The translations under genes were made by a program, and so were the position numbers. From assembly GCA_964649415.1 (NCBI GenBank), contig CAZYSK010000067.1, positions 191 to 32,342 on the forward strand: 32,152 bases of DNA, read 5' to 3'. Below are positions 1 through 20,503 of the stretch, in pieces (positions within the stretch are counted from its first letter, which is position 1; every line of letters starts with the position of its first letter). Origin of the DNA: an uncultured Anaerolineales bacterium (GTDB lineage Bacteria; Chloroflexota; Anaerolineae; B4-G1). The notes under the pieces were generated by a model. The model saw nothing but the letters and a program-made list of their open reading frames with translations, searched no databases and was not told where the DNA came from.

Positions 1-113
1 GCGGTCAGACGGAGGATGGAGCGCCATCGGACGTACGAACAGACGCCCCACCAACCTACGAACCTAGCGATCTACCGAATTCCGATCAAGCGGATCGTCC
101 CAATCCGAGGGTT

Positions 114-1066: not shown

Positions 1067-2788
1067 ATGAACGAATCTACTGAACAAGAGCGATTCAGAC
1101 ACCAAGTCTGGTTGGAGTGCAAAGCGTGTGGCCATCGAGTCCCATTCACCCATCCCGTGAAGGTGTGTGAGCAATGCGGAGGGGCCTGGATAGACGCCCG
1201 CTACGACTACGAAGCCGTACGGAAACTATGGCCCGCTGCCCTACGCGACCGCCCTTTCGACATGTGGCGGTATCGAGAGCTACTCCCGGTTCGTGACCAC
1301 GCGCACAAGGTGACTATGGGCGAAGGCGGGACCCCCCTGCTCCAGGCAGCCAACCTGGGAATGATGCTGGGCTGTCCGCACATTTACTTCAAAGACGAAC
1401 GCCAGGGACCGACGGGCTCCTTCAAAGACCGACAGGCCGCGCTGGCCATCTCGGTGATGAAGGAGCACGGCGTGATGGAGGCGGTGGTGGCATCTACAGG
1501 CAACGTCGCCATCTCATACTCGGCCTACTCTGCACTGGCCGGCATCAAGATGTGGGCGTTTCTCACCAGCCTGGTGCCCTCGGAGAAGATGCGCGAGGTG
1601 GCTCTCTACGGCAGCGAAGTGGTCAAAGTGACATCCACCTACGACGAGACCAAGAAGGTCGCAGCGGAGTTCGCGGCGCGCAAGGGGCTGTTCCTCGACC
1701 GGGGCATCCGGGGCATCTCGGCCCGAGAGGCCATGAAGACGGTCGCTTTCGAGACAGCTGAACAACTGCCCGCGCTCCTGGGCCTCAGGCCAAGCCATGG
1801 CGACACGCCCTGGCGCACACCGGACTGGTACATCCAGGCAGTGAGTGGAGGAATGGGGCCGGTAGGCGTGTGGAAAGCGTACGAGGAGTTGATGACGCTG
1901 GGCCTGGTCGACCGAATGCCGAGACTGGCGTGCATTCAGGCGGCGGGCTGCGCGCCGATGGTCCACTCATTCCAGAAAGGGCTGGACGAGGCGGAGACGG
2001 TGACCAACCCTCAGACACTGGTCATCACCATCGCCACCGGGAGCCCTGGCCCGGCCTATTCCTACCTGGCCCACGTTATCCGGGAGCATGGCGGCGCTTT
2101 CGAGGCAGTCACCGACGATGAGACGTTCCGTGCCATGCACGTGATGGCCAAGCTAGACGGCATATCAATGGAACCAGCGGCGGCGACAGCTTTCGCCGGG
2201 TTGTTCAAGCTGCTCAACAAGGGCGTCATCGGGCGCGATGAAGTCATCGTTGTCAACTGCTCGGGTCACACGTTCCCGGTCGAGAAGCACCTCCTGGGAA
2301 ACGAATGGGCGCGCACGGTGGAGTTGCCTGCGGAGAAGCCAACCGTCCAGGAAGGAGCCGCTTTGCTTCCCTTTGCAACAGAAGGGCTGCTCGGGACGCT
2401 GGGGCAACTGAACGGGCGGGTCCGGTCAATCGCCATCATCGAGGACGACTCACAAGCCCGGCTGCTGCTGCGGCGCATTCTACAGACGCGCGGCGAATAC
2501 CAGATCTTCGAGGCTCCCGATGGCGCTGCGGGGCTCGAGATGGTGCGCGCCCAACGGCCTGACGTCATCCTGTTGGACCTGATGATGCCAGGCATGGACG
2601 GCTTTGAGGTGTTGGACGCGCTCAAGGATGACGAGCAGGTAAGCGACGTGCCAGTGATCGTCATCACGGCCAAGGAGTTGACTGCGACGGAGCGAGATCG
2701 GCTCAGCAAGCAGACCGAGAAGTTGCTGGAGAAAGGCTCCTTCACCGACGAGGACCTGCTGGAAGAGATTCTGAAGCGGGCATCGTGA
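1067..2788 (+). CDS. Threonine-synthase-like PLP-dependent enzyme (fold type II) with an N-terminal Cys4 zinc-ribbon, fused to a C-terminal REC receiver domain
   Basis: The N-terminus has CKACGH...CEQCGG. The PLP-lysine motif PTGSFKDRQAA matches the ThrC / Trp-synthase-beta superfamily, and there is a glycine-rich SGGMGPVG loop. A ~130-aa linker follows, then a canonical REC domain (IAIIEDD...LLDLMMPGMDGF...VIVITAKEL). Confidence 0.75.
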   Translation: MNESTEQERFRHQVWLECKACGHRVPFTHPVKVCEQCGGAWIDARYDYEAVRKLWPAALRDRPFDMWRYRELLPVRDHAHKVTMGEGGTPLLQAANLGMMLGCPHIYFKDERQGPTGSFKDRQAALAISVMKEHGVMEAVVASTGNVAISYSAYSALAGIKMWAFLTSLVPSEKMREVALYGSEVVKVTSTYDETKKVAAEFAARKGLFLDRGIRGISAREAMKTVAFETAEQLPALLGLRPSHGDTPWRTPDWYIQAVSGGMGPVGVWKAYEELMTLGLVDRMPRLACIQAAGCAPMVHSFQKGLDEAETVTNPQTLVITIATGSPGPAYSYLAHVIREHGGAFEAVTDDETFRAMHVMAKLDGISMEPAAATAFAGLFKLLNKGVIGRDEVIVVNCSGHTFPVEKHLLGNEWARTVELPAEKPTVQEGAALLPFATEGLLGTLGQLNGRVRSIAIIEDDSQARLLLRRILQTRGEYQIFEAPDGAAGLEMVRAQRPDVILLDLMMPGMDGFEVLDALKDDEQVSDVPVIVITAKELTATERDRLSKQTEKLLEKGSFTDEDLLEEILKRAS

Positions 2789-2825
2789 CGGCACTCCGGC
2801 GGAGACCTGACGGGGCGAACAAAAA

Positions 2826-2976
2826 GCATGGAGCGCCATCGGAATGGCGCCTTCAAATGGAGCATGGAGCGCCATCGGAATGGCGCCTTCAAATGGAGCA
2901 TGGAGCGCCATCGGAATGGCGCCTTCAAATGGAGTATGGAGCGCCATCGGAATGGCGCCTTCAGATAGAGCATGGA
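2826..2976. repeat. Family-1 hairpin repeat: four tandem copies of a 36-bp unit (ATGGAGCGCCATCGGAATGGCGCCTTCAAATGGAGC) containing the perfect palindrome GCGCCATcggaATGGCGC
   Basis: Four directly abutting units fill the intergenic space between the ThrC-REC gene and the hybrid HK gene. A partial copy is also present at 15..32 of the window. Confidence 0.85.
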
Positions 2977-4447
2977 TCAAGCAATCAAAGTACTATACGT
3001 GGAAGACGATCCGGCAAGTGTGACGTTGGTGCGTCGCGTGCTCGAGAATGAAGGTTACCAGATTGTCGCCGCCCCTGATGGCCTTTCGGGCATCGAGGCA
3101 GCCAGGCAGGAACTGCCGGACCTGATCCTGATGGATATCGACGTCGGAGGACTGGACGGCTACGAGGTGAGCACCAGGCTACGGAGCATCGAGGAACTGA
3201 AGAAGGTACCCATCGTGGCCGTCACTGCCGCACGCATGCGCGGCGACCGAGAACGAGCGCTCATAGCCGGTTGCACTGGCTACATCCCCAAGCCCATCGA
3301 CGTAGATACATTCTCGGAGCAAGTGCGTTCTTTCCTCCGGGGGACCAAGGAGGATGTTGAGTCGGCGGAGGAGAAAGCGGGGTACCTGGTCGAGTACAGC
3401 CATAGGCTGGTGGACCGATTGGAAAAGAAACTGCGCGAGCTGGAGAAGGCTCATGCGGATCTCCAGCGCTTGGATAAGATGAAGACGGACTTCATCATCC
3501 TGTCCAGTCACGAACTTCGCACCCCTCTCACCGCCATTTATGGCTACGCCCAGATTCTCCGATCCAACCCCGCCATCCCCGGCTCCGCCGATGATGCTGG
3601 CAGTCCACGCTGCATCGTAGAGAGGATGGCGGAAGCGACGTGGCGCTTGAACCAGGTGATAGGCGATATCCTCAACGTCGCGCTGCTTGACGCCCGGGAA
3701 CTGGACCTGGCGACAGAGCCGGTCTTCCTGGACTCTCTGATACACAAGGCCGTGCGGAGCATCAGCGACTCAGCGCCTGATCGGCAACTGACCTTCGATC
3801 TCGGAGGGCTAGATAACCTCCCGCGGGTGACAGGGGACTCGAAACGCCTGTACCAGGCACTGTGGAACGTGATCAGCAACGCGGTGAAGTACACGCCCGA
3901 CGGAGGGCGTATCCGTATCACAGGAGATCAGATCGAGGATACGGCGCACGTGGCTGTCCAAGACAATAGGGGGCAGGATACAGGAGTACCACGGATAGGA
4001 GAAATACACGATGGGAGAGGCGGAGGGCAGGAGGCAGGAGGCAGGGAGACGGCAGACATTAACCCCGACCGTCTGCCCCCGACTGTCCGCGGTCGGCACC
4101 GTCCGCGGTCGACGCCGGCTGCGTCCGTGCACGTGGTCGTCCAGGACAGTGGAGTAGGAATTCCTCCAGAGGATCAGGAACGCATCTTTGATCGCTTCTA
4201 CGTGCTGGAGAACACGGATCTCCACTGCTCCAGCAAGACGGCGTTCAAGGGGGGCGGGTTGGGCGTTGGGCTCACCGTAGCACGGGGCATCATCAGAGCG
4301 CACGGGGGCAGAATCTGGGCAGAAAGCGAAGGGTACGACGAAGAGCGGCTGCCGGGCAGTACCTTCCACATCCTCCTGCCGCAGAGACAGGAAGAAGCGG
4401 GAGGCAAGAGGCAAGAGGGGTCGCCGGACATGCTGACAGATTGGTGA
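2972..4447 (+). CDS. Hybrid sensor histidine kinase: N-terminal REC, then HisKA (H-box SHELRTPLTAI) and HATPase_c, with a 61-codon in-frame repeat insertion before the G1 box
   Basis: The REC domain reads VLYVEDDP...LMDIDVGGLDGY...KP. The H-box is FIILSSHELRTPLT. The N-box-like segment is VISNAVKYTPDGGRIRI. The G1 box DSGVGIP and G2 box GGGLGVGL are present. The ORF is continuous across the insertion. Confidence 0.8.
   Translation: MDQAIKVLYVEDDPASVTLVRRVLENEGYQIVAAPDGLSGIEAARQELPDLILMDIDVGGLDGYEVSTRLRSIEELKKVPIVAVTAARMRGDRERALIAGCTGYIPKPIDVDTFSEQVRSFLRGTKEDVESAEEKAGYLVEYSHRLVDRLEKKLRELEKAHADLQRLDKMKTDFIILSSHELRTPLTAIYGYAQILRSNPAIPGSADDAGSPRCIVERMAEATWRLNQVIGDILNVALLDARELDLATEPVFLDSLIHKAVRSISDSAPDRQLTFDLGGLDNLPRVTGDSKRLYQALWNVISNAVKYTPDGGRIRITGDQIEDTAHVAVQDNRGQDTGVPRIGEIHDGRGGGQEAGGRETADINPDRLPPTVRGRHRPRSTPAASVHVVVQDSGVGIPPEDQERIFDRFYVLENTDLHCSSKTAFKGGGLGVGLTVARGIIRAHGGRIWAESEGYDEERLPGSTFHILLPQRQEEAGGKRQEGSPDMLTDW
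3965..4129. repeat. In-frame 183-bp composite insertion (purine-rich GGCAGGAGG repeats plus a family-2 GC-rich repeat), flanked by an 18-bp imperfect direct repeat at 3947..3964 and 4130..4147
   Basis: CACGTGGCTGTCCAAGAC and CACGTGGTCGTCCAGGAC match at 15 of 18 positions and flank the element. At protein level HVAVQD is duplicated as HVVVQD. Removing the insertion restores a canonical ..TAHVAVQDSGVGIP G1-box context. Confidence 0.55.
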
Positions 4448-4513
4448 GCCGGCGGGCCTTAGCGTAAACCGACGGTCCGGATCGTTCCAATCCGTGGATA
4501 TCCCGCGGCAGGC

Positions 4514-5431
4514 CTAACCGTGCTTCCACTCCAGGGGCTCGTTGCCCTGCGCCAGGTGCATACCCGGATCGCGCATCATCAATACCATGCCAACGACCAA
4601 CAGCGCGCCGCCGATCCATTGCACCGGCGACAGACGTTCACCCAGCAGCAGAAAGGCAAGCGCCAGGCTGATTAGCAGTTCGAGCAGGCCGAACAAAGCT
4701 GTCTCCACGCCTCCCACCCGCTGCAATCCACTGAACATCGCCAGCCGCGACAGGGCAGTCGTCAGTCCTAGCGCCAATATAGCGGATAGACCGGAAGGTG
4801 TGACGGGCTCCACCGGCTGTCCCTCCAACACCCGTGCCAGACCCACCACACCCGCCATGGCGGTCAGTATGTACAGCGTAGCGGTACGGGATGGCACATC
4901 GGCCAACACCCACTGCCCCAACACCAGATGCCAACCGTAGATAGCCGCCGACGCGACCATCATAGTCACTCCCAGCCAGTCCAACTTGCCCGTCCCTGAG
5001 CGCGTCAACAGAAAGACTCCCAGCATCGAAAGCGCCAGGCGAGCCAACGTGAGCATCGTCAGTGGCTGCCCAGATGCAAAGAGGAATAACACGACCCACA
5101 GCGGATAGAGCGTGTTGAGCAACGCGGCGAGGGAAGCGTCGAGACGCGAGAGGCTGGTGTAGTAAAACAGGGAGCCCAAACCATTGACTGCCCCCACACT
5201 GATGCACCCAAGCAGCCCACGCCAGGAGATGACAATCTCTCGACGCCACAAGAGCGCGAAGGCCAGCCAGATCAGAACGGCTGCGACAGCCGTCCGAAGT
5301 GCGGCGAGGGTGAAGGGCGTGACCCCGCTCCGATAAGCGAACTTGCCCAGAATGGGCGCCCAGCCAAGAAAGAAACTGGCCATACACGTGCTCACGATCC
5401 CATGACGCTGCTCGCGGCTCAAATGGTCCAT
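4514..5431 (-). CDS. DMT-superfamily (EamA-like) 10-TM transporter. The likely start is MDHLS at 5431 with a GGGAG RBS. The ORF extends to 5497.
   Basis: The ORF has about 10 hydrophobic helices in two repeated halves (EamA-like). The amino-acid composition is typical of drug/metabolite transporters. Confidence 0.7.
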   Translation of the reverse strand: MDHLSREQRHGIVSTCMASFFLGWAPILGKFAYRSGVTPFTLAALRTAVAAVLIWLAFALLWRREIVISWRGLLGCISVGAVNGLGSLFYYTSLSRLDASLAALLNTLYPLWVVLFLFASGQPLTMLTLARLALSMLGVFLLTRSGTGKLDWLGVTMMVASAAIYGWHLVLGQWVLADVPSRTATLYILTAMAGVVGLARVLEGQPVEPVTPSGLSAILALGLTTALSRLAMFSGLQRVGGVETALFGLLELLISLALAFLLLGERLSPVQWIGGALLVVGMVLMMRDPGMHLAQGNEPLEWKHG

Positions 5432-5487
5432 CTCACTCCCATCGGTTCCAGGCGGGCGCGGGGACCGCGCCCCTACGCGGTGGCTTG

Positions 5488-5645
5488 TGGACGCCATCAG
5501 AATGGCCTTCTTGGGTTGATCGGGGCCATCAGAATGGCCTTCTTGGGTTGATCGGGGCCATCAGAATGGCCTTCTTGGGTTGACTAGGGCCATCAGAATG
5601 GCGTCCTTGAACAGGACTGGTGCGCCACCGGAATGGCGCCATCCT
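5488..5645. repeat. Family-1 hairpin repeat array: three and a half tandem copies of a 32-bp unit (GGCCATCAGAATGGCCTTCTTGGGTTGATCGG) followed by a GCGCCACCGGAATGGCGCC variant
   Basis: The units are directly abutting and the GGCCATcagaATGGCC palindrome is visible. The array lies in the divergent intergenic region between the transporter and the 5684 ORF. Confidence 0.85.
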
Positions 5646-5683
5646 ATTGCGCGATGACGGCGTTTGTGATACACTCGCGCTTG

Positions 5684-6373
5684 ATGACTCAGAGACAAAG
5701 ACATACGATTGCCGCGCTGGCGATCGCCAACATCGTCATTATTCTCGCCTTGTCAGTGCTCGTGGCACCGTCTACCGGTGGGCGCAGTGACCGTGCCCAT
5801 TCCATCGTGAAGGGAAGCGATGCGGCCCATTCCACTATGGAGGGAAGCGAAGCGGCTCCTACCACTGTGAAGGGAAGCGAAGCGGCCCCCGGCCACGAAG
5901 ACCACGCCCCTGTTGAGCTGGTGTGCCAATGGAAAGCCACGCAGTTGCTCGCTCAAGCCGGCCTGGGCGGCAAACTGACCCTGGCTCCTGATGGACCGCT
6001 CCAGGTCGAGATCACCACAGACCTGACAGGGCAGATGCCACGGACGCATGCACCCGGTGGAGAACCTGTCAGGTCCGTTGACGAGGCCGCCCATTCCACC
6101 ATAGAGGGAAGCGAAGCGGCCCAATACGTATGGACAGCCTTCGACATCGCACTGGCCTTGCTGGAACAGGAGAAGGAATGCGCCACATTCACACAGGTCG
6201 AAGTCAGGATTCTGGCGCACGGCCACACCACCACTACGCAGATCAGCGCGATCGTCAATACGGCTGACCTGTCATCTTTCAGCGCAGGTGAACTCAGCGA
6301 GGACGCGTTCATCGAGCGCGTGGAATACACAAGCACCGCGATAAGTGAGAACGGATTGTTCCGATCCGAGTAA
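5684..6373 (+). CDS. Hypothetical membrane-anchored protein whose central region is built from 30-bp family-1-like repeats (the ORF extends upstream to 5633)
   Basis: The N-terminus has a TM helix, IAALAIANIVIILALSVLV. Three or more tandem 30-bp units (GCGGCCCATTCCACTATGGAGGGAAGCGAA) encode the repeat AHSTMEGSEAA. The C-terminal ~90 aa look protein-like. The upstream ATG at 5633 lies inside the repeat array. Confidence 0.35.
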   Translation: MTQRQRHTIAALAIANIVIILALSVLVAPSTGGRSDRAHSIVKGSDAAHSTMEGSEAAPTTVKGSEAAPGHEDHAPVELVCQWKATQLLAQAGLGGKLTLAPDGPLQVEITTDLTGQMPRTHAPGGEPVRSVDEAAHSTIEGSEAAQYVWTAFDIALALLEQEKECATFTQVEVRILAHGHTTTTQISAIVNTADLSSFSAGELSEDAFIERVEYTSTAISENGLFRSE

Positions 6374-6399
6374 GAGTATAGCACACTCGTTCCATCGGC

Positions 6400-6625
6400 A
6401 CAAGAGGGCAGGAGGCAGGAAGCAGGAAGCAGGAGGCAAGGGACAGGGATGAAAGACAGCGCGCCATCGGAATGGCGCCGTCTGATAATGGATGGCGCGC
6501 CATCGGAATGACGCCGCCTGATGGGGGATAGTGCGCCATCGGAATGACGCCGCCTGATGGGGGATAGTGCGCCATCGGAATCGCGCCGTCTGATGATGGA
6601 TGGTGCGCCACTGGTCAGAATGGCA
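6400..6625. repeat. Purine-rich GGCAGGAGGCAGGAAGCAGGA tract followed by four tandem ~37-bp family-1 units (GCGCCATCGGAATG(A/G)CGCCGCCTGATGGGGGATAGT)
   Basis: The array is directly visible and lies immediately upstream of the GH-like gene. The units degenerate toward the 3' end. Confidence 0.85.
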
Positions 6626-6648
6626 AGTCCAAAAGGGGTAAAGACACG

Positions 6649-9165
6649 GTGAAGCGATTGGTTCTGATGTGCGTCGCGGCCTTGCTGCTTCTGGTGGCTG
6701 CCGGTGCGCCATCAAAACGGTGCGCCATCGGAATCGCGCCGCCTGATAGGAGGTGGCACGCCATCGGGCGCACGGACAGCCGCAGCGTCCACAGAATGGA
6801 TCGCTTCGGCTCCCTCTACAGCGGAATAGCGACGTCCCAACAGGAATGGCCGGTGCGAACTCTGCACTCCGGCTATCACTTCCTCCCACCCTACGCGAAT
6901 CCCCGCGACCGCTTCGGCTTCGACTCGGGGAGCGACCTGACCACCTACGCAGTGGAGCAACTCCAGGCCGGTTGGTATAGCGATTGGAATACCAACCTCA
7001 ACCCACCCCACCCTGATGGCCTGACCTACGTCCAACTGGTGCGGCTCCACGCCGGGGCCGATCCGCAAGACCCAACCCAGGTCACAGTGGCTCCCAGCCC
7101 GGAGATCATCGCCCAGATCGCGGCCGCACACCCGGGATCCCTGTGGCTCTTGGGCAACGAGCCGGATTCCCTCTACTGCGGCAGTCCGATCTACCCTGCA
7201 GTGTACGCCCACGTCTACCACGACGTCTACACAACCATCAAGGCACTGGACCCCAGCGCACTGATCGCCAACGGCGCTGTTGTCCAGCCCACGCCCTGTC
7301 GTCTGGAGTACCTGGACATCGTGTGGGATACGTATGTCCAGGCCTACGGCGAGCCGATGCCGGTGGACGTGTGGAACACGCACGCTTTCATCCTGCGCGA
7401 GGTGTACGGCTCATGGGGTGCCAGCACACCACCGGGTGTGGACCCAGGCTGCGGCGTCGCTTATCCTGTCTACGACGGCGATAACGTGGACGTGATGCGA
7501 GATCACCTCGTGGCCCTGCGCCAATGGATGAAGGACAAGGGAGAACAGAACAAGCCCCTGATCATCAGCGAGTACGGCGTGCTGTGGCCAGAGTGGTTCG
7601 TGGACGAGCGGGGACAGGCTTTCACGGCTGCCCGGGTGAGCCAGTTCATGACCCAGACCTATGACCTGTTTCTAAACGAGACCTACCCGGATATCGGTCT
7701 TCCCCAGGACGAATACCGGCTGGTGCAAGCCTGGGCCTGGTACAGCCTGTCCGACGACCAAGACTACAACGGCTACTTGTTCCACAGCAACTCCAAGGAA
7801 ATCTCCCCAATAGGTCAAGCGTACGCCGACTACACCGCCGCCCTGACGGACACGCAGTACACCGACCTGACCGCCCAACTGTGGGCGGACGTAGAGCCGC
7901 TGGCACACCTCACCCCAACCCTACCCTACGACGCGCCATCAGAATGGAGCCTTTGTGGAGATAGCGGTGCGCTGACCGCGACGCTTCCAGTGACGGGAAT
8001 CGTCGCCAATCTCGGTCCGTTGACCGCCACAGGCGTGGTCATCGCATGCCCAGGGTCGGGATGCCAGCTCATCCAGGATGTGCCTGGACGATATGTGGAG
8101 GACATCGCCCCGCTGCCGCTGCCGACGCTTGCCATCACCGCACCCGGGGTATACGATCTGTCGCTCGTCGCCGACGCGCCGCAGTCGCTGCCCGACGTAC
8201 GCCGCTGGAACAACTCAAGCACCGTCAGCGTGGACGCTAGAGCCGATCTGACGGTCTTGGAAGCAGTCTGGTGCATCCATTCCCAGGAGCCCGCGAGCGA
8301 TGTGCTCTCCGTCACCCTGACGGTGGAGAACGAAGGGCTCTGGCCCACGCCGCCCATTTCCGGCGCGCTGCACTTGAACAACGCCCAAGGCTCCCTGGTC
8401 CCGACGGTGCGGCAGGTCTCCGTCCCGGCCATGGGATCTCGTGCTCGAGCAGTTTCGCTCCAGGAGATGCCCCTTCCCGGTTCCAGTGAGGATCTGTACC
8501 GTCTGACGATTGACGTAGACAGCGCTGCGGTCCTGGACGAGCAGGATGAGAGCAACAACCAGGCCCAGATTCCGATTCCCATCGTCGTCACGACCACGCT
8601 GCAACCCACCGCCACCGGCGCGCTAACCTCGGCCAGCGGCCACACAGCCTTCTTGTTCCCGGCCACGTCAGTGACGCTGCCCACAGAGATACGTTTCACG
8701 CCGCTCCTGACGTCTGAATTGCCCCCAGGCCCACCATTGGGCGTGTCGGCGTTTGACCTGCGCGCCTATCGGGGTGGCGAACCTGTGTCCCCAACGCTAT
8801 CCTGTCCCATCACCGTCACCTGGCAGTACAGCGATACGGAGGTGACAGGGCTGTACGAGAGCGGCCTGGGCCTGTATAGCCTGGCATCAGACGGCCTTTG
8901 GCAACGTGTGTACCACCCGGTCGAGCGACACGATCTGGAGATGAACCGGCTGAGTACCTGCGTCCACCACTTGGGCACGTATGTCTTTGGACAGGGCGAC
9001 GAAATCTATTTCCCATCCATGCTGCTCGGCCCAGAGCTAGGAAACTGGCTGAGACACCAAGGTCTTGAGAAAGCGCCAGTTTCTCCTGCCGTCTCTGCTG
9101 CAGGAAGTTGTCCCTCCGGTCTTCCGCCGCGACTGACACCGAACGTGTCCCCTGCAGGATACTGA
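6649..9165 (+). CDS. Secreted glycoside-hydrolase-like protein (clan GH-A TIM-barrel motifs) with a C-terminal CARDB-like domain. A family-1 repeat sits in-frame directly after the signal peptide.
   Basis: The signal peptide is MKRLVLMCVAALLLLVAAGA. WLLGNEPD is an acid/base NEP-type motif and LIISEYGV is a nucleophile-Glu-type motif. The CARDB signature is ADLTVLEAVW...NEG...DEQDESNNQAQIPI. Residues 18-45 are encoded by GCGCCATC.. repeat units, and DAPSEWSL at 7925..7948 is another repeat copy. Confidence 0.6.
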   Translation: MKRLVLMCVAALLLLVAAGAPSKRCAIGIAPPDRRWHAIGRTDSRSVHRMDRFGSLYSGIATSQQEWPVRTLHSGYHFLPPYANPRDRFGFDSGSDLTTYAVEQLQAGWYSDWNTNLNPPHPDGLTYVQLVRLHAGADPQDPTQVTVAPSPEIIAQIAAAHPGSLWLLGNEPDSLYCGSPIYPAVYAHVYHDVYTTIKALDPSALIANGAVVQPTPCRLEYLDIVWDTYVQAYGEPMPVDVWNTHAFILREVYGSWGASTPPGVDPGCGVAYPVYDGDNVDVMRDHLVALRQWMKDKGEQNKPLIISEYGVLWPEWFVDERGQAFTAARVSQFMTQTYDLFLNETYPDIGLPQDEYRLVQAWAWYSLSDDQDYNGYLFHSNSKEISPIGQAYADYTAALTDTQYTDLTAQLWADVEPLAHLTPTLPYDAPSEWSLCGDSGALTATLPVTGIVANLGPLTATGVVIACPGSGCQLIQDVPGRYVEDIAPLPLPTLAITAPGVYDLSLVADAPQSLPDVRRWNNSSTVSVDARADLTVLEAVWCIHSQEPASDVLSVTLTVENEGLWPTPPISGALHLNNAQGSLVPTVRQVSVPAMGSRARAVSLQEMPLPGSSEDLYRLTIDVDSAAVLDEQDESNNQAQIPIPIVVTTTLQPTATGALTSASGHTAFLFPATSVTLPTEIRFTPLLTSELPPGPPLGVSAFDLRAYRGGEPVSPTLSCPITVTWQYSDTEVTGLYESGLGLYSLASDGLWQRVYHPVERHDLEMNRLSTCVHHLGTYVFGQGDEIYFPSMLLGPELGNWLRHQGLEKAPVSPAVSAAGSCPSGLPPRLTPNVSPAGY

Positions 9166-9453: not shown

Positions 9454-10746
9454 TCACCGGAAGTTGAGCCCCGGCAGGAACGAGGGCAGGGGAAACAGCG
9501 CCGGGATGATCTCACCCAACGTGCCTGAGACACTGCGGACATTGATCGTGCGTCCGCGGACGTTGACCGTGCGTCCGCGGACATTGATACCGACCGTCTG
9601 CGGTCGGCTGCGTCCGTCCGCTGGCGCTCCCATCACCAGCCGCGTTATCTCACCCCCGTCCAGTTCGAGCCGCTCCCGACCCAGCACGGCGCGAAACCGG
9701 TCCCCCTCCTGCTCAAAGCGAAGCCCGCGCCAAAGGCGCGCGTCGAAGCACGCCTCAACGTAGTCCCGGAGGTCGGACATCAGGCCAGGAAGATTGACAA
9801 TGCGCATGGTGTGCTCGGGCAGAGGCAGACGCACTCCGGCGACACCCCGTTCGTGAAGCAGACGCAGGAAGTCCGCATCCTGCCAAGGCACGAACATCCG
9901 CAGTCCCCGCAGATCCAGCCGGGCCATAACCTCGGCCAGCGCGCCGGCGAGCGCAACCCGGCTGCCAGCATACTCGTACACCTCCCGCACGCCCGAGTCC
10001 GGCTCGCGCAGATTCTCCCAGGGGAAACTCAGGAACAGGTAGGCCACCGGGCGACCTCTCAGTTCCACAATCCAATCCTCCGCCTGGGGGAACTCCTCAG
10101 GTTGGCAGAAGTGCCGGGTGAACACCTCTACACACCGCACAAAGCGCACCGGCTCTGTCTGGTAAAGACGGGAGCACAGAGAGGCATCCGACTCGGTCGC
10201 CGGGCGGAGCGCAAGGCCGTCTACCCTCAGATCGACCTGACCGGGCTTGAGCACCACGTGCTCAAACTCCTGGGAAGCGACACAGCCAGCCCGCCTGTAG
10301 AGCTCGCGGTCACCAGAGACGAGCATCAGACGAGCACCTTCGGCGGTCAATTGGCGGGCGCAGTGATCGAGCAGCCGTGTGGCTAGTCCTAGACCCCGGT
10401 AGTCCGGGTGGGTACACACGCTGCCGATGCTGGCGACGCGCAAGGGGCTGCCGTACACGCTGACCTGACTGTGCCAGATGCCGATCTGGGAGACAGGTTC
10501 CCCCTGGTGGCAGATGACCTGCATCCCACCACGCCGGGGCGGGGTGTGCGCGGATTCGCCGCACGCGGAGGCAGTTTCCCCCAGATGCAGTCCGTCCGCC
10601 TGCTCAGCCTCCCCCGCAAACTCCGGGAAGCACAACGCATCCAGTCGCCGCGAGGCCACCAGCTCCTCCCGCCGGAGGAGGCGCGGCCCGTCCAGATCAT
10701 CCAAGGAGATCGAACACCCAGTATCCATATCCATCATTGCAGTCAA
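9454..10746 (-). CDS. GNAT-family N-acetyltransferase, Eis-like (GNAT plus a second GNAT-like lobe plus an SCP2-like C-terminus). The last ~45 aa are encoded by a family-2 repeat.
   Basis: The acetyl-CoA binding motif is SVCTHPDYRGLGLATRLLDHC. The ~400-aa length and three-lobe layout fit Eis-like enzymes. The C-terminal tail VRGRTVNVRGRTINV comes from the tandem 21-bp repeat. Confidence 0.6.
   Translation of the reverse strand: MTAMMDMDTGCSISLDDLDGPRLLRREELVASRRLDALCFPEFAGEAEQADGLHLGETASACGESAHTPPRRGGMQVICHQGEPVSQIGIWHSQVSVYGSPLRVASIGSVCTHPDYRGLGLATRLLDHCARQLTAEGARLMLVSGDRELYRRAGCVASQEFEHVVLKPGQVDLRVDGLALRPATESDASLCSRLYQTEPVRFVRCVEVFTRHFCQPEEFPQAEDWIVELRGRPVAYLFLSFPWENLREPDSGVREVYEYAGSRVALAGALAEVMARLDLRGLRMFVPWQDADFLRLLHERGVAGVRLPLPEHTMRIVNLPGLMSDLRDYVEACFDARLWRGLRFEQEGDRFRAVLGRERLELDGGEITRLVMGAPADGRSRPQTVGINVRGRTVNVRGRTINVRSVSGTLGEIIPALFPLPSFLPGLNFR
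9538..9620. repeat. Family-2 GC-rich repeat with an internal 21-bp tandem duplication (CGTGCGTCCGCGGACGTTGAC x2) containing the 10-bp perfect palindrome GTCCGCGGAC
   Basis: The element shares GACATTGATACCGACCGTCTGC and GGCTGCGTCCG with the copies at 987 and 4055. Confidence 0.5.
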
Positions 10747-13555: not shown

Positions 13556-13594
13556 CGCCCTCGGACACTTGTCGCGTCCATCGGAGATAGATCG

Positions 13595-15448
13595 GTGAAC
13601 GTCCCGGATCACGTCCGGACTCAGATCGAGACAATCCCCCGCAGGCCCGGCGTCTACCTGATGCGCGACGTCAGCAACACCGTCATCTACGTCGGCAAGG
13701 CGGTGGACCTGCACAGCCGCGTACGCTCCTATTTCCAGCCTTCCGCCTGGGACATCCCCAAGGTACGCGCGATCGTGTCTGAGGTCGCCGACGTGGATTT
13801 CCTGGTCACGGACTCAGAGCTGCAGGCGCTGATCCTCGAGGCGAACCTGATCAAAGAGCACCGTCCCCGCTACAACGTGCGCCTCAAGGACGACAAACGC
13901 TATCCATACATCAAGATCACCTGGGCCGACCCCTTTCCCCGGGTGCTCATCACGCGCCGCATGGAACAGGACGGCAGCCGCTACTTCGGCCCCTTCACCT
14001 CCAGTTCGGCTATGCACCAGACGCTCGATCTGCTGCGCAAGTCATTTCCGTACCTGACCTGCAATCGGGAGATCACTGGCCACGACGAGCGTCCCTGCCT
14101 GTACTACGACATCAAGCTGTGCCTGGGACCCTGCATTGGCGCGGTGACGCAGGAGGAATACCGGGCCATGATTCGGGGACTGGCTCGCTTCCTCGAAGGG
14201 CGGAGCGAGGAGGTGATCTCGGACCTGGAACAGCGGATGAAGGCGGCCTCCGAGGGGTGGGACTTCGAAAAAGCGGCTTCACTGCGGGACCAATTGCAGG
14301 CAGTGCGGCAGGTCGTCGAGCGGCAGACGATCGTCTCGTCGGTTGGCGCCGATCAGGACGTGGTCGCCTTCGCCCGCGAGGAGAACGACGCATGCGTGCA
14401 GGTCTTTTTCATCCGGAGCGGCAAACTGCTGGGACGGGAATACTTCCTGCTGGAGGGGACACAGGACGAAGACGAGCGGGAGGTGATGGCCGCCTTCCTC
14501 AAGCAGTTCTACGAGGAGGCAGCGTACATCCCGCCCGAGGTGCTGCTGCCGGAACAGATCGAGGAAGCTCTGATCATCGAGCAGTGGTTGAGAACCAAGC
14601 GCGGAGCCAAGGTGGCGCTCCAGGTCCCCCGCCGGGGCCAGAAGCGCCGGTTGGTGGCGCTGGCGGCGGAGAACGCCACGGAGACGCTCGCCGCCCTGCG
14701 TGCCCAGTGGCAGGCCGACGCCCACAAGCACGAGCAGGCGCTGGCCGAGATCCAGAAGGCACTGGAACTCCCAAAGCCCCCGGCACGCATCGAGTGCTAC
14801 GATATCTCCACCACGCAGGGGACAGAGATCGTCGGCAGCATGGTCGTGTTCGTGCAAGGCGTGCCGCGCAAGTCGGGCTACCGGCGCTTCGTCGTGCGCA
14901 GCGTCCACGGGCAAGACGACTACGCCAGCATGCGCGAGGTGCTCGAGCGACGCTTCCGCCGCTGGCAGATCGCCACGTCGGACGAGGCGCTGGGTAGCCG
15001 GGACATCAAGGGATGGGCCAAGCTGCCTGATCTGCTCATCGTGGATGGCGGCAAGGGGCAGCTAGGCGTGGCGGTCGAGGTGCTGAAGGCCTTCGACCTG
15101 CTTGACAGGATCCCCGTGGCCGGGCTCGCCAAGCAGCGCGAGGAGATCTTCCTCCCAGGGCGGGGGAAACCGGTCCTGCTCCCCCGCCGCTCCCAGGGCC
15201 TGTACCTGGTGCAGCGCGTGCGGGACGAGGCGCATCGCTTCGCCATCACACACCACCGCACGCGCCGGCGTCGGGCAGGCGTGGCGTCACAACTGGACGG
15301 CATCCCCGGCGTGGGTCCGGCGCGGCGCAACGCGCTCCTCAAAACCTTTGGATCGCTCAGCGCGATCCGCGCGGCCAGCGTCGAGCAGTTGGCTGCCGTG
15401 CCCGGCGTCCCACGCACTGTGGCCGTCTCTATCAAGGAGAACCTGTAG
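13595..15448 (+). CDS. uvrC: Excinuclease ABC subunit C (UvrC)
   Basis: The N-terminal GIY-YIG motif is PGVYLMRD...IYVGKA. The protein is 617 aa, the canonical length. The UvrBC-interacting region, the RNase-H-like domain and the HhH are present at the C-terminus. Confidence 0.92.
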   Translation: MNVPDHVRTQIETIPRRPGVYLMRDVSNTVIYVGKAVDLHSRVRSYFQPSAWDIPKVRAIVSEVADVDFLVTDSELQALILEANLIKEHRPRYNVRLKDDKRYPYIKITWADPFPRVLITRRMEQDGSRYFGPFTSSSAMHQTLDLLRKSFPYLTCNREITGHDERPCLYYDIKLCLGPCIGAVTQEEYRAMIRGLARFLEGRSEEVISDLEQRMKAASEGWDFEKAASLRDQLQAVRQVVERQTIVSSVGADQDVVAFAREENDACVQVFFIRSGKLLGREYFLLEGTQDEDEREVMAAFLKQFYEEAAYIPPEVLLPEQIEEALIIEQWLRTKRGAKVALQVPRRGQKRRLVALAAENATETLAALRAQWQADAHKHEQALAEIQKALELPKPPARIECYDISTTQGTEIVGSMVVFVQGVPRKSGYRRFVVRSVHGQDDYASMREVLERRFRRWQIATSDEALGSRDIKGWAKLPDLLIVDGGKGQLGVAVEVLKAFDLLDRIPVAGLAKQREEIFLPGRGKPVLLPRRSQGLYLVQRVRDEAHRFAITHHRTRRRRAGVASQLDGIPGVGPARRNALLKTFGSLSAIRAASVEQLAAVPGVPRTVAVSIKENL

Positions 15449-17229: not shown

Positions 17230-18732
17230 TTACACTTGATGGATGAGGATGGGCGACAGCCACGTGGTATCGTTGCGATCAATGGACAATTCGCACCTTG
17301 CATGCCAAAGCGCAACTTCTGGTCTGCCCTGGTCCAGCAGGGACTTATAGAAGGCCAGGGCCAATCGCCGAGCGCCGTCGTCGGATACAGGCCAGCGATA
17401 GCCCACCACCGAGGGCACACCGGCCTGGGCGACTGCATCGGCCAATCCGAGGAAGTCATCATCGAGCAGAGCAACCTTTCCACCCGACGCTGTGCCGTAG
17501 CAACTGCTCAGATAGACGAGGCGCACCCCCGATTGCCCAAGTAGCAGCCTGACTTCGGTCGCCCGCATAGGCACGATGCCCCCTTGCTTGTCCGCCTCAG
17601 CCCAGAAGTAGAGGCTACTTTCTTCGGGAGAGTCGGCCTCATAGGAACCATGCCCTGCATAATGTACCACGTCGTAGTTCTGTGCCTTCAACTCTGCTCT
17701 GACGCGTTCGTATGTGGCTTGTTCCGTGGCGATGAGCTTCACGTCAACCGGGATACGATCCTGGCCTTTCAAATAACTGGATAGCTCTTGTGCCTCGGCA
17801 TCAGCCCCATCAATCGGAGGCAGAGTCTTCGAAGTCGTGTTCGACGCGATGATCAGCACGCGCAGTTCTTTCGTCAGTGCCAGCACGCGAGGCGAGATCG
17901 CTTCGCGCTTTGGGGTAGCCTCACACACAAACCGGGCAAGCGGATGCTGAAGCACCAGGTATTCCTGAGGGGCATCCGAGTACATGAACTCCATTGGAAG
18001 ACACACATACTCCCTGGGAGTCTCAAATTGCAGCGAGAGCAACTGGCTGCTGGCACGGGCCGTCAGATAGGTCTCTTTGGCCTCGGGTTGCTCACCGAAT
18101 ACGTCACGCCATAGGTCGCGACCGATCTGCTCGACCTGCAAACGCAGGTTGTTCCAGTCTTGCCTGGCAACTTCGGTCCTCCTCGCATATCGCTCGACGT
18201 CTAGCACCAGCGCCCTGCCCGACCGCCGGGAGCAAACGTGATAGCCACGCGATCTTATCGCCAAGTGCTGCCTTGCCACAAGAGACAGGGACAGCCTGGA
18301 TTCATCGCCGAAATTCTTAAGCTGTGGTTCTCTTGGCTCGTCGCATATCCCCGGCCTGTCTCTCGTCTCCGCGATGATCTCCAAGACTTGTTTGACCACA
18401 TCTGGCGTCTTCTCGACGAATTGCTCTACCCCAAGATACCGAATCGCGCGGACGATTTGCTTGGCCCTCACATAGCGCGTTAGCAAGATGACGTGGACCT
18501 TCGGATCCAGAGCGCGGAAAGCCATCGCCAGACTCGAACCACTTTCGTCCTCCTCGCCACCTTCGTGCAGACGTACATCAATGAGCGCAAAATCGAAGGG
18601 CTCCTGTATGACCGCGTCCAGTGCCTGTCCCTCATTGGATGCCACCCGCACGGTATGCCCCTCATCGGAGAGCCGCCCGCGCAATGTATCCCGGAAGTCA
18701 GGCTCATCGTCTACTACCAGTATCTTGTACAT
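17230..18732 (-). CDS. Response regulator with N-terminal REC and C-terminal CHAT (caspase-like) protease domain. The start is MYKIL at 18732 with a GAGGGGG RBS. The ORF extends to 18834.
   Basis: The REC domain reads ILVVDDEPD...LIDVRLHEGGEEDESG...ILLT...K. The CHAT His/Cys dyad context is VVHYAGHG and RLVYLSSCYGT, with the typical ~400-aa CHAT layout. Confidence 0.75.
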   Translation of the reverse strand: MYKILVVDDEPDFRDTLRGRLSDEGHTVRVASNEGQALDAVIQEPFDFALIDVRLHEGGEEDESGSSLAMAFRALDPKVHVILLTRYVRAKQIVRAIRYLGVEQFVEKTPDVVKQVLEIIAETRDRPGICDEPREPQLKNFGDESRLSLSLVARQHLAIRSRGYHVCSRRSGRALVLDVERYARRTEVARQDWNNLRLQVEQIGRDLWRDVFGEQPEAKETYLTARASSQLLSLQFETPREYVCLPMEFMYSDAPQEYLVLQHPLARFVCEATPKREAISPRVLALTKELRVLIIASNTTSKTLPPIDGADAEAQELSSYLKGQDRIPVDVKLIATEQATYERVRAELKAQNYDVVHYAGHGSYEADSPEESSLYFWAEADKQGGIVPMRATEVRLLLGQSGVRLVYLSSCYGTASGGKVALLDDDFLGLADAVAQAGVPSVVGYRWPVSDDGARRLALAFYKSLLDQGRPEVALWHARCELSIDRNDTTWLSPILIHQV

Positions 18733-18797
18733 CGCTACGCCCCCTCGCGCCATCGCCTGCGACTGTGGAAAAGGATCACCGGACAAGCCACTCAGAC

Positions 18798-19688
18798 TCA
18801 CTCGACTGCGTCCCACCTCTCCCGTATGTAGCACATGGCCGCCCTAACATCCAGGTTCCGCGTCGAATTGCCCATACGCACCCAGAACTCGTGAGAGTCA
18901 CCCTTGCCCAAGAAAACCGGCCTTGGGCTTTCGTCAATGGAGACGGCGCAGATGCGCTTGCCATCCATCAACTCGAAACGTGGGTGGATATACAGCACGT
19001 ATTCCGCACCCAAATTGACCTGGACAATATCGGTCAGCAACAGTTGGAATCCGTCGATATCTGACTTGCGCAGGGTCTGCAAGTCTCTTTCAATACCCAG
19101 TATCGTGCCATCGTCAGCGACGCCAAGGAGCAGATGCCCGCCCCCGCAATTCAGCATCCCGGCTATCGCCCTGGCAATCTCCTCCTGCAATCTCTTGTTG
19201 ACTCTGTTCTGCCTGTAGTCCCAACGAATACTGGACTTAAACTCCACCCGGTCATTCTCACCCTGGGCGATCAATTCGACGACATCTGGGGCCGCGCATT
19301 CAACCGCGCGCTTCACATATCCCGGCAATTGACTCACTTCGGATTTCTCCAGGAAGCCAAAGGCTGGCGCAACCCCGTCGTGGTCCGGTTGGAGGGCCTC
19401 ACGCACCATCTTGACGTCCGCGTAGCCGGTCAAGATGATGATAGCCACGCTGGGGTCCTTCTCTCTGATCTCGTGCATGAGCACAAGGCCGTCGCGGTTT
19501 TCTTCGTCAGCCTCGTCCAGGCGGACGTCCAGGACTGCGACGTGAAAACGCTCGGCATCCACCATGTGCAGAGCTTCGGCTCTGCTGGACGCCAAGCGTA
19601 CGTCGTAACCATCGTCTGACAGAAGACCCGACAGCGTCACGCGCACGTCGGGCAGATCATCCACGACAAGAACGCGCCCTCTGTGCAC
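18798..19688 (-). CDS. Response regulator with N-terminal REC and C-terminal AlbA_2 (Schlafen-like) domain. The start is GTG.
   Basis: The REC domain reads VLVVDDLPD...VLDVRLDEADEENRDG...IILTGY...EKS. The C-terminal segment ENDRVEFKSS...AIAGMLNCGGGHLLLGVADDGTILGI...FWVRMGNSTRNL matches the AlbA_2 / Schlafen core. It lies 24 nt downstream of the preceding REC gene. Confidence 0.7.
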   Translation of the reverse strand: MHRGRVLVVDDLPDVRVTLSGLLSDDGYDVRLASSRAEALHMVDAERFHVAVLDVRLDEADEENRDGLVLMHEIREKDPSVAIIILTGYADVKMVREALQPDHDGVAPAFGFLEKSEVSQLPGYVKRAVECAAPDVVELIAQGENDRVEFKSSIRWDYRQNRVNKRLQEEIARAIAGMLNCGGGHLLLGVADDGTILGIERDLQTLRKSDIDGFQLLLTDIVQVNLGAEYVLYIHPRFELMDGKRICAVSIDESPRPVFLGKGDSHEFWVRMGNSTRNLDVRAAMCYIRERWDAVE

Positions 19689-20114: not shown

Positions 20115-20503
20115 TGTCCCCCTCCTTCGCGGTTATCATGACGTCGATGCCCTATCGCGGCGGACGAGGGAATAATACCCTCGACGTGCTCAACCAGGTC
20201 CCGGTCACCGAAGGATTTGGCGAAATAGCGCTTGGCCCCCAGCCGGTAAGCCGCCAGGGCCTCCTCAGTCGTGGGCTGGACGGTCGTCACCACGACCCGC
20301 TTATCGGCGTATTTCTCGGCGATGATCTCAAGCACGTCCAGGCGGCGGGAACTCGCGATGACCAGATCGAACTGGTTCGCCTCAAGCTCGGTGATGGCAG
20401 TCTCCTTGTCAGGCGCGACGACTATCTCGAACTGGTTCAAGTCGTTCTTGGCGAACTCTATCCAGCAAGGTTCATCGTCGATGATCAGAATGCGCGTTCT
20501 CAT
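20111..20503 (-). CDS. Atypical (pseudo-)receiver domain protein that apparently lacks the phospho-acceptor Asp
   Basis: The REC fold is recognisable: ILIIDDEP in beta1, VVVTTV carrying the Thr, and YFAKSF carrying the Lys. Beta3 reads FDLVIASS, so the acceptor Asp position holds Ala. It overlaps both the HK stop and the next REC gene by 4 nt. Confidence 0.65.
   Translation of the reverse strand: MRTRILIIDDEPCWIEFAKNDLNQFEIVVAPDKETAITELEANQFDLVIASSRRLDVLEIIAEKYADKRVVVTTVQPTTEEALAAYRLGAKRYFAKSFGDRDLVEHVEGIIPSSAAIGHRRHDNREGGGQ

Follow-up and report, generated by a model that had tools for sequence, protein, structure and literature searches.

A dispersed family of tandemly arrayed hairpin repeats in uncultured Anaerolineae

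Introduction

Repetitive extragenic palindromic (REP) sequences, bacterial interspersed mosaic elements (BIMEs) and the palindromic repeat superfamilies defined by a GTAG or CGTC tag are mobilised by REP-associated tyrosine transposases (RAYTs), and intragenic copies of tagged repeats are occasionally reported (Di Nocera et al. 2013, PMC3733652). REPINs consist of REP pairs in inverted orientation (Bertels and Rainey 2011, PMC3116915). Here, a family of hairpin repeats is described that forms direct tandem arrays in a stretch of 32,152 nt (contig CAZYSK010000067.1, referred to as the window) from an uncultured Anaerolineales bacterium of the Chloroflexota, and that recurs on many other metagenome contigs.

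Mycobacterial interspersed repetitive units (MIRUs), reportedly described by Supply and co-workers in 1997, are said to be minisatellites of the variable-number tandem repeat (VNTR) type. MIRUs are 40–100 bp long, lack a conserved hairpin core and are co-oriented with operons, and they can sit in intercistronic gaps, creating small open reading frames (ORFs) that abut the flanking genes. The Rickettsia palindromic elements (RPEs), which Ogata and co-workers are said to have described in 2000, are single insertions of 100–150 bp. RPEs are also mentioned by Di Nocera et al. (PMC3733652).

With a probability of about 0.68, the repeats studied here constitute a lineage-specific family of short interspersed palindromes of uncultured Anaerolineae (Chloroflexota), REP-like and MIRU-like at once, for which the term 'hairpin minisatellite' may be used. 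The family is dispersed and differs between lineages, shows insertion polymorphism and local copy-number change, has no strand bias and is filtered for frame and length inside genes. It is ordinary in principle; what is unusual is that it forms direct arrays with locus-specific tails, frequently occupies genes in frame and has no identifiable mobilising partner. The core sequence was found in no relevant paper, and the literature yielded no description of such repeats in Anaerolineae.

Core motif, dispersal and anatomy of the family

A search of the window for CGCCATCGGAATGGCG with up to three mismatches gave 15 matches, all on the + strand between positions 2834 and 7949, compared with 0.69 ± 0.76 in dinucleotide-preserving shuffles, none of 100 of which reached 15. 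The matches cluster at 2834–2957, 5492–5638 and 6462–6738, with a further one at 7934, and no family copy was found in the window between 8 and 32 kb. The family core is GCCATCRGAATGGC. Tandem Repeats Finder (TRF), the source of the array periods, copy numbers and percentages of matches, delineated arrays A–D (Table 1) with periods of 36, 32 and 36 nt and, in a derived form, 30 nt. The tandem hairpin arrays at four or more loci that the initial annotation had reported from the sequence are thus confirmed. Its description of the stem-loops as perfect palindromes applies to arrays A and B; copies 2–4 of array D and the copies at 6704–6772 contain stem mismatches.

The motif is not confined to this locus, so that the refuting outcome named in the initial annotation, a motif missing from the rest of the genome, is not borne out. 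The pattern GCCATCRGAATG-N16-28-GCCATCRGAATG matched at least 119 metagenome contigs. All family counts given below (arrays, units, orientations and frames) refer to the loci fetched among the matches listed (L119–L237), which total 640 kb, represent six sample series and have GC contents of 0.50–0.70; the pattern demanded two perfect cores as a direct pair, and invariance of the core and arrangement of the copies are therefore subject to ascertainment. No viral contig matched the two-core pattern. A scan of a genome collection with a 16-mer returned almost exclusively single chance matches, with one true unit, bearing a typical tail, in a GTDB Anaerolineae metagenome-assembled genome (MAG; L078). 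Several pairs of loci are orthologous at 73–93% nucleotide identity, and hence several species carry the family. The named homologs of the ThrC-like protein encoded next to array A (ThrC-REC, Table 1) belong to Anaerolineae or Chloroflexota MAGs.

The loci contain 163 arrays and solo units, 136 of which have 2–10 cores. The unit, G[CT]G[CT]-GCCATC[AG]GAATGGC-tail, is 30–39 nt long, most often 35–36 nt, and comprises a 14-nt core, which forms a 5–7-bp stem with a 4-nt loop, and a lineage-specific tail of ~18 nt that usually ends in (T)GATG. Intervals of 36 nt (86 cases), 35 nt (61), 34 nt (33), 33 nt (24), 15 nt (16) and 18 nt (14) were counted, and those of 30–32 and 37–39 nt occur as well. 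Tandem amplification with tails particular to each locus, which had been singled out as unusual, is correctly described and represents the normal mode of the family, with periods of 15, 18 and 30–39 nt. The tails fall into subfamilies (CCTCTAGAGRGTGATG, GCCTTTGTAGGGTGAYG, CCTYTTGAAGAGTGATG and CGTTYCCAAAAGCTAATG), the last of which is present in 18 of the 21 arrays from the Ga02334xx samples (mean GC 0.56) and almost nowhere else. Since the tails divide by lineage in this way, it is the whole unit that spreads, not the hairpin alone, diverging as it does so.

Only the GCCAT/ATGGC part of the stem is constant. At the position just outside it, C-G was counted in 52 units, C-C in 29, T-C in 27 and T-T in 8, and these changes are not compensatory. 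The idea that the tails contain another conserved hairpin was considered and rejected: palindromic tails such as CCTCTAGAGG and CCTTTAAAGG exist, but the folding energy of the tails over 124 units equals that of shuffles (p = 0.64). The ends of the arrays are not fixed, partial units of variable length being found at start and stop, and solo units are bracketed by short direct repeats, e.g. GATGGCG...GATGGC. Head-to-head inverted core pairs number six among the 163 arrays and solos, and none was found in loci not ascertained by the pattern.

Gain, loss and copy-number change

Comparison of orthologous loci revealed filled and empty sites. In L216, the N-terminal tail of a small membrane protein includes 2 × 36 nt in frame, where L152, at 93% nucleotide identity, has no array; the empty site in L152, ...CATCGG|GCCA..., is microhomologous to the core. 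L127 has an array of 2 × 33 nt in a gene, and at that site L149 has a copy of another hairpin family, CGGATYGTYCCRATCCG. In L151, a radical-SAM-like enzyme includes 3 × 36 nt in a loop, and its homolog in L230 is without them. Array C is present only in the lineage of the window, and the orthologs of its host protein in L238, L239 and L241 lack it. The single C-type unit at 6082–6120 has a counterpart in L238 but none in L239 or L241.

The closest relative, L238, the ThrC-REC protein of which is 90% identical to that of the window, has single cores at the positions of the solo unit 5618–5652 and of array D, the latter (at 13667) with a different tail, and no array at the position of array B. 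The reverse case is the window unit at 6793–6851, which is orthologous to a 4-copy array in L238 (13901–14024, 30 nt × 4.1) that encodes MSRFASLYSE four times. In L239 and L241 (~80% identical), the gaps that correspond to the site of array A are 24 nt and 68 nt long and contain no array; L239 has one perfect core elsewhere.

Two near-identical contigs extend the comparison to shorter distances. L118 (JGI contig Ga0180431_10000159), the last 32 kb of which is the window, and the ENA contig L117 are 99.9% identical, with ~8 substitutions in 21.7 kb, and differ by only three indels, of −72, −32 and −36 nt, which are whole units in arrays Z, B and D; this gap in copy number may be an assembly artefact, the arrays being of about read length and the assemblies possibly sharing reads. 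Array Z, the last unit of which opens the window, has 4.5 units of 36 nt in L118 (8813–8965) and 2.5 in L117, and L117 has one unit fewer in array B and in array D. L138 and L202 have orthologous arrays that are distinguished by indels of 15 nt and 4 nt, i.e. by partial units. Many arrays are located at contig ends (for instance in L124, L142, L143, L157, L168, L174, L175, L179, L180, L199 and L211), as expected of multi-copy repeats, and they thereby explain assembly breaks.

Comparison with described repeats

The family shares with REPs a short palindromic unit (20–40 nt in REPs; here an 18-nt hairpin in a unit of 30–39 nt), many dispersed and clustered copies (on at least 119 contigs), presence/absence differences between relatives, occasional intragenic copies and a host lineage with RAYT-like genes. 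It differs from them in having no GTAG or CGTC at the stem, the 5' flank being G[CT]G[CT] and the 3' flank GC, CC, CG or TG, in its stem of just 5–7 bp and in the lack of a REPtron, i.e. a RAYT gene flanked by the family, among five RAYT-like loci. Furthermore, its arrays are direct and head-to-tail rather than inverted dimers or alternating BIMEs, in a search that demanded direct pairs, and ~19% of them are in genes. The REP/MITE-like nature suggested in the initial annotation is therefore upheld in kind, by the number of contigs, the filled and empty sites and the copy-number variation, and not as a RAYT-type REP, as the tag is missing and another family flanks the RAYT-like genes. From REPINs, with which it has in common an abundance of short repeats thought to be non-autonomous mobile DNA evolving within genomes, the family is distinguished by the predominance of direct repeats, the six head-to-head pairs notwithstanding.

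Direct tandem repeats of tens of bases at many intergenic loci, with a copy number that varies between close strains, are also typical of MIRUs, and the 46-codon upstream ORF of array A, which abuts the next gene, resembles the intercistronic ORFs of MIRUs; this applies to array A alone. As in VNTRs, direct tandem repeats occur here at several loci with copy numbers that differ between close relatives, subject to the assembly caveat for L117 and L118. Unlike MIRUs, the family is randomly oriented (11 versus 15 arrays in genes; 23 co/co versus 17 anti/anti) and many arrays are intragenic. With RPEs it shares the character of palindromic selfish DNA that lies both between genes and in frame inside them, surface loops and linkers being the places where it is tolerated. 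An in-frame palindromic element missing from orthologs, the mark of an RPE-like insertion, was found in four comparisons (L216/L152, L127/L149, L151/L230 and array C against L238, L239 and L241). The units of 30–39 nt are, however, tandem-amplified, and the phylum is a different one. A period of ~30–37 nt and a palindrome in the repeat are reminiscent of CRISPR arrays, from which the family differs in having no unique spacers (the whole period repeats, at 82–96%) and in occurring as 2–10 units at more than 100 loci, some in genes; no cas genes were found in the window and its flanks. Intrinsic terminators differ in that the present hairpins have neither a U-tract nor a gene-oriented bias.

Origin and spread of the arrays

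In the REP-like, MIRU-like family that we favour, units appear at new chromosomal sites, and a seeded copy would then expand and contract into a small direct tandem array. Growth and shrinkage could proceed by slipped-strand mispairing or by unequal recombination between the ATGG or GATGGYG homologies that bracket the units, and the hairpin may favour polymerase stalling; in a published study, archaeal replicative polymerases slipped in vitro on a hairpin-containing template (PMC4134008). Within genes, survival is limited to arrays that preserve the frame and code for hydrophilic peptides of the linker type, and by this route the family lengthens protein linkers and loops. Seeding might be due to a candidate hairpin-recognising enzyme or to microhomology-mediated template switching.

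Several points weigh against this view. The 14-nt core is nearly invariant across lineages that differ in tail and GC content; neutral junk would decay, and sequence-specific recognition by an enzyme or binding protein therefore probably exists, though part of the invariance is ascertainment. Neighbouring arrays on one contig share orientation in 26 cases versus 12 (p = 0.03; L119–L237 and the window), and the 20 full cores of the window and L118, spread over 17 kb, without exception occupy the + strand; such shared orientation could reflect short-range copying or a replication-strand bias. No transposase-like gene recurs beside the family arrays and no mobilising enzyme was found, nor does the GCCATCRGAATGGC core lie within 500 nt of the RAYT-like gene in L224 and L244–L247, a small sample in which the repeats are GTAGGGGCGACCC... 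or ...CCYGCCCCTAC instead. To these are added the possible assembly origin of the difference between L117 and L118 and the way in which gene context was assigned: the count of 26 internal arrays among 136 (~19%; 91 are intergenic) requires at least 90 nt of gene on both sides and depends on a home-made codon-bias gene caller, whose calls in the window match the public ones.

A more specific variant, which we judge rather unlikely, treats the family as a mobile minisatellite of a new type, its ~35-nt module of hairpin plus tail being copied by an enzyme other than a GTAG-type RAYT or by hairpin-promoted template switching (compare CATCGG and GCCA at the L152/L216 empty site) and then amplifying itself in direct tandem. 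If this were true, the near-invariance of the core would reflect recognition by the copying machinery, and Anaerolineae proteins would, as a side result, be continually provided with hydrophilic linker peptides in frame.

It is also unlikely that the repeats are genuine REPs that a RAYT mobilises in trans, its processing activity leaving tandem arrays behind in the way proposed for BIME arrays. RAYT-like genes are present in the same communities. When E. coli RayT was used as a phmmer query against all ORFs of the loci, one RAYT-like ORF was found, in L224 (E 7e-5); it matched the NCBIfam model REP_Tyr_transpos NF047646 at 5.6e-14 and 52 bits, under the curated cut-off of 80, gave no match in Pfam and is interrupted by repeat-derived insertions. 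Its relatives form a very large family in Chloroflexi and are often labelled RayT by JGI, and another such gene, in L248, comes from the window's own sample. The few head-to-head pairs, and one subfamily with GTAG in the tail, could likewise be counted for a RAYT. However, no GTAG or CGTC stands at the foot of the hairpin, GTAG being present in ~15 of 124 units and then 5 nt downstream of the stem. What is more, all five RAYT-like loci with adjoining hairpins (L224 and L244–L247) carry another repeat family: the genes are flanked, and in four cases also interrupted, by GTAG-tagged REPs, GTAGGGGCGACCCTYGTGGTCGCCC and GGGCRGG-N7-CCYGCCCCTAC. The RAYT-like gene of L248 has no flanking hairpin of either family. 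Correlation with RAYT genes was proposed as a check in the initial annotation: such genes exist, and a different, GTAG-tagged family flanks the five with adjoining hairpins. As the cognate repeats of the clade's RAYT-like genes differ, the question becomes what recognises and spreads a hairpin without GTAG.

Direct arrays are also formed by the GTAG-tagged REPs of these organisms, in L224 (1–230, 44-nt period) and L236 (5 × 66 nt). This too is compatible with a RAYT, and direct arrays for this reason seem to be a habit of the lineage. A recurrent neighbour gene was considered as a mobilising partner and dismissed, as only GAF/kinase and ABC-ATPase families recur.

The RAYT-like genes have a context of their own. 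They are situated directly upstream of hsdM in type I restriction-modification operons in L244 (4001–4600), L245 (669–1268), L246 (211–810) and L248 (4001–4732), in L244 and L248 between hsdS and hsdM, and the RAYT-like ORFs of L244–L246 themselves hold in-frame GTAG-REP insertions.

Binding sites, RNA elements or a peptide module

It is quite improbable that the dyad GCCAT-N4-ATGGC is recognised by a dimeric DNA-binding protein, be it a regulator, a nucleoid-associated or a partition-type protein, with the arrays as clusters of its binding sites. In the core, a dyad of 14 bp that hardly varies between lineages, 9 bp separate the centres of the half-sites, and the stem beyond 5 bp is unconserved and uncompensated, which indicates that sequence and not structure is conserved. 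Several window arrays are upstream of signalling-cluster genes, and L238 keeps solos at orthologous intergenic positions. Against a regulatory site stands the location of about one fifth of the arrays (26 of 136) well inside genes in both orientations, as do the gain and loss of arrays between close relatives and the absence of a common function among the neighbouring genes. The periods of 15–39 nt are not phased consistently with the helix, and orthologous solo cores are conserved no better than their flanks.

That the hairpins function in RNA, whether by attenuating or terminating transcription, by stabilising mRNA or as a protein sponge with GGA loops, is very improbable. Array A folds somewhat better than shuffles (z −2.5 to −4.4; as RNA, −2.9 for the + strand and −4.4 for the − strand), an excess that any quasi-palindromic repeat would show. 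The + strand, on which most flanking genes are encoded, bears every full core of the window, and the loop CGGA resembles a GGA loop of the CsrA type. Half of the loops are, however, CAGA, without GGA, and the tails are no more structured than shuffles. Relative to genes, the orientation of the 136 arrays is unbiased: 11 internal arrays are co-oriented and 15 opposite, and of the intergenic arrays 23 are co/co, 17 anti/anti and 13 mixed, neither split being significant. A scan for sigma-70-like promoters found none within the window arrays, and the promoter regions in which the initial annotation placed some of them are putative. Terminator-like sites number 4 in the window versus 3.3 in shuffles, none of them on the + strand at the arrays, and on that strand no T-tract follows the hairpin. 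Rfam gave no match at gathering thresholds for the whole window and none at E ≤ 1 for 2700–8000. Because there is no strand bias, promoter, terminator excess or Rfam match, these results argue against an RNA-level role, including the transcription attenuator suggested in the initial annotation, and place the action of the family at the DNA level, without a strand-specific part in transcription.

Selection of a peptide module (GAPSEW...) at the protein level, with the intergenic copies as decayed remnants, has an even smaller chance of being correct. In-gene arrays do favour two frames: 17 of 25 internal arrays read ...(G)APSEW... or, from the opposite strand, ...GHSDGAPS... (p = 4.5e-4). The three in-ORF copies in or next to the window all read A-P-S-E-W, and the variable loop base R is synonymous in the favoured frames. 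Nonetheless, the DNA unit occupies at least five frames and both strands, 91 of the 136 arrays are intergenic with many periods not divisible by three, the host proteins are unrelated, the arrays lie in linkers and loops that orthologs lack, and conservation is at the nucleotide level. The frame preference, together with a period divisible by three in 25 of 26 internal arrays versus 38 of 91 intergenic ones (Fisher p = 2e-7), reveals a clear selective filter inside genes, as in the favoured reading.

Misassembly or a degenerate CRISPR array as the origin of these repeats can practically be set aside: the arrays are near read length and many abut contig ends, but the same arrays appear in independent JGI, ENA and NCBI assemblies, orthologous arrays are 92% identical between different samples, the whole period repeats without unique spacers and the window has no cas genes.

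The repeats thus document REP-like selfish DNA in Anaerolineae. Their arrays vary the length of linkers and loops, for instance those of histidine kinases, of a radical-SAM-like enzyme and of membrane proteins, enlarge intercistronic gaps and constitute natural VNTR markers for strain-resolved metagenomics.

Arrays and genes of the window

Table 1. Repeat features and genes of the window, with repeats listed first. TRF results are given as interval, period × copies and matches.
Feature	Position	Strand	TRF result	Description and context
Array Z, last unit	1..31	+		Remainder of the array upstream of the window
Array A	2825..2976	+	2825–2976, 36 nt × 4.2, 96%	Unit AGCATGGAGCGCCATCGGAATGGCGCCTTCAAATGG; in the gap between the ThrC-REC stop (2788) and the RR-HK ATG (2972)
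Upstream ORF from array A	2828..2968	+		46 codons, (MERHRNGAFKWS)n, predicted from sequence
Array B	5488..5609	+	5493–5609, 32 nt × 3.7, 94%	Unit GCCATCAGAATGGCCTTCTTGGGTTGATCGGG; between the divergent EamA gene (− strand) and ORF 5633–6373
Solo unit	5618..5652	+		GCGCCACCGGAATGGCGC; one mismatch in stem
Array C	5795..5888	−	5795–5888, 30 nt × 3.1, 82%	Derived unit: 3' half-core GGAATGGGC + tail CGCTTCGCTTCCCTYCACAGT
Single C-type unit	6082..6120	−		In frame in ORF 5633–6373 (AAHSTIEGSEAAQ)
Array D	6461..6630	+	6461–6610, 36 nt × 4.2, 88%	Unit GCGCCATCGGAATGACGCCGCCTGATGGGGGATAGT, 36 nt × 4.2, and a degenerate fifth core; upstream of ORF 6649–9165
Degenerate cores	6704..6772	+		GCGCCATCAAAACGG, GCGCCATCGGAATCGCGC, CACGCCATCGGGCGC; N-terminal region of ORF 6649–9165
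Single C-type unit	6793..6851	+		AATGGATCGCTTCGGCTCCCTCTACAGCGGAATAGCGACGTCC...; translation RMDRFGSLYSGIATSQQEW
Solo unit	7927..7972	+		GCGCCATCAGAATGGAGCCTTTGTGGAGATAGCGGTGCGC; in frame in ORF 6649–9165 (DAPSEWSLCGDSGA)
Giant PAS/GAF kinase	ends 1061	+		Followed by ThrC-REC
ThrC-like PALP-REC fusion (ThrC-REC)	1067–2788	+		Followed by array A
Response-regulator histidine kinase (RR-HK)	2972–4447	+		3' of array A
EamA transporter	4514–5497	−		Followed by array B and solo unit
Membrane-anchored ORF, 246 aa	5633–6373	+		Holds array C and a single C-type unit
Secreted protein, 838 aa	6649–9165	+		3' of array D; holds degenerate copies and a solo unit
Acetyltransferase, UvrD, UPF0047, UvrC, more signalling proteins	after 9165			In gene order

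The repeats embedded in ORFs are in frame, as had been noted, and the ORFs concerned are three rather than two, namely the giant kinase, 5633–6373 and 6649–9165. Array Z is located in the HATPase-REC linker of the giant kinase, a PAS/GAF hybrid kinase of 2289 aa, and encodes DGAPSEWRGQME repeats. Of the six frames, five are free of stops in the units of arrays A and Z, and the intergenic array B, with its 32-nt period, has stops in every one.

The start codon of RR-HK lies inside AGCATGG, the terminal partial unit of array A, and the upstream ORF is in the frame of RR-HK and ends with a TAG 3 nt before its ATG. A possible side effect of array A, as judged from the sequence, is thus that it supplies the start codon of RR-HK and creates an upstream ORF.

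In the solo unit at 5618–5652, the 3' arm includes the annotated ATG at 5633. This unit is orthologous to the L238 solo at 12921, with which it has the right flank TCCTATTGCGC in common, and it represents the ancestral copy of the locus.

Array C is read as AHSxxEGSEA repeats in ORF 5633–6373. The GCCCATTCCACTATGG repeats at 5795–5888 and 6082–6120, which had been listed as a hairpin variant, do not form hairpins and prove to be the reverse complement of its unit, GGAATGGGC followed by CGCTTCGCTTCCCTYCACAGT. At 13893–14024, L238 has the array C unit on the + strand directly behind a full core, and array C is for that reason a derived member of the family in the opposite strand.

The ThrC-REC protein combines a threonine-synthase-like PALP domain with a C-terminal receiver domain and is kept at 76–90% identity in more than 100 Anaerolineae contigs. 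Its cluster is constant in consisting of the giant PAS/GAF kinase, ThrC-REC, RR-HK and EamA.

Compared with the orthologs in L239 and L241, RR-HK of the window has an insertion of 61 aa within HATPase_c and a C-terminal insertion of 11 aa. These insertions (3990–4140 and 4395–4430) are composed of GGCAGGA heptamer runs and a repeat family, CCGACCGTC.../CGACCGTCCGCGGTCG, that recurs in two other genes, with related copies at 984–1041, 6404–6443 and 9534–9610. L238 is without RR-HK (11680–11918 in L238 versus 2789–4513 in the window), and at the junction it has two hairpin cores at a distance of 16 nt, together with a GTAG-REP and the CCGACCGTC family; these repeats suggest that RR-HK may have been lost from L238 by a repeat-mediated deletion.

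A GTAG-tagged REP, GTAGGGGCGCGG-N3-CCGCGCCC, is found in the window at 5454–5476 on the − strand, 12 nt from array B. The loci hold 14 copies of it, among them L238 11819–11841, 12882–12904 and 13104–13126, and others in L131, L165, L201 and L236, where they make up the direct array of 5 × 66 nt. A general link between this repeat and the hairpin family was not sustained, the two adjoining only in the window/L238 lineage and in L165.

The second hairpin family, CGGATYGTYCCRATCCG, occurs in the window at 91–107, in the linker of the giant kinase, at 4479–4495, between the convergent RR-HK and EamA genes, and at 6353–6369, at the 3' end of ORF 5633–6373. Further copies are at 13567–13602 in L238, where the repeat is duplicated in frame (GLFQSGGLFQS), and at ~100–117 in L149.

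Further along the window, REC-CHAT and REC-Schlafen/AlbA_2 proteins adjoin a 1593-aa kinase with eight GAF domains (17230–19688 and 20500–25281, both on the − strand). A 300-nt direct repeat, 21227–21526 and 21767–22066, falls within the gene for the eight-GAF kinase.

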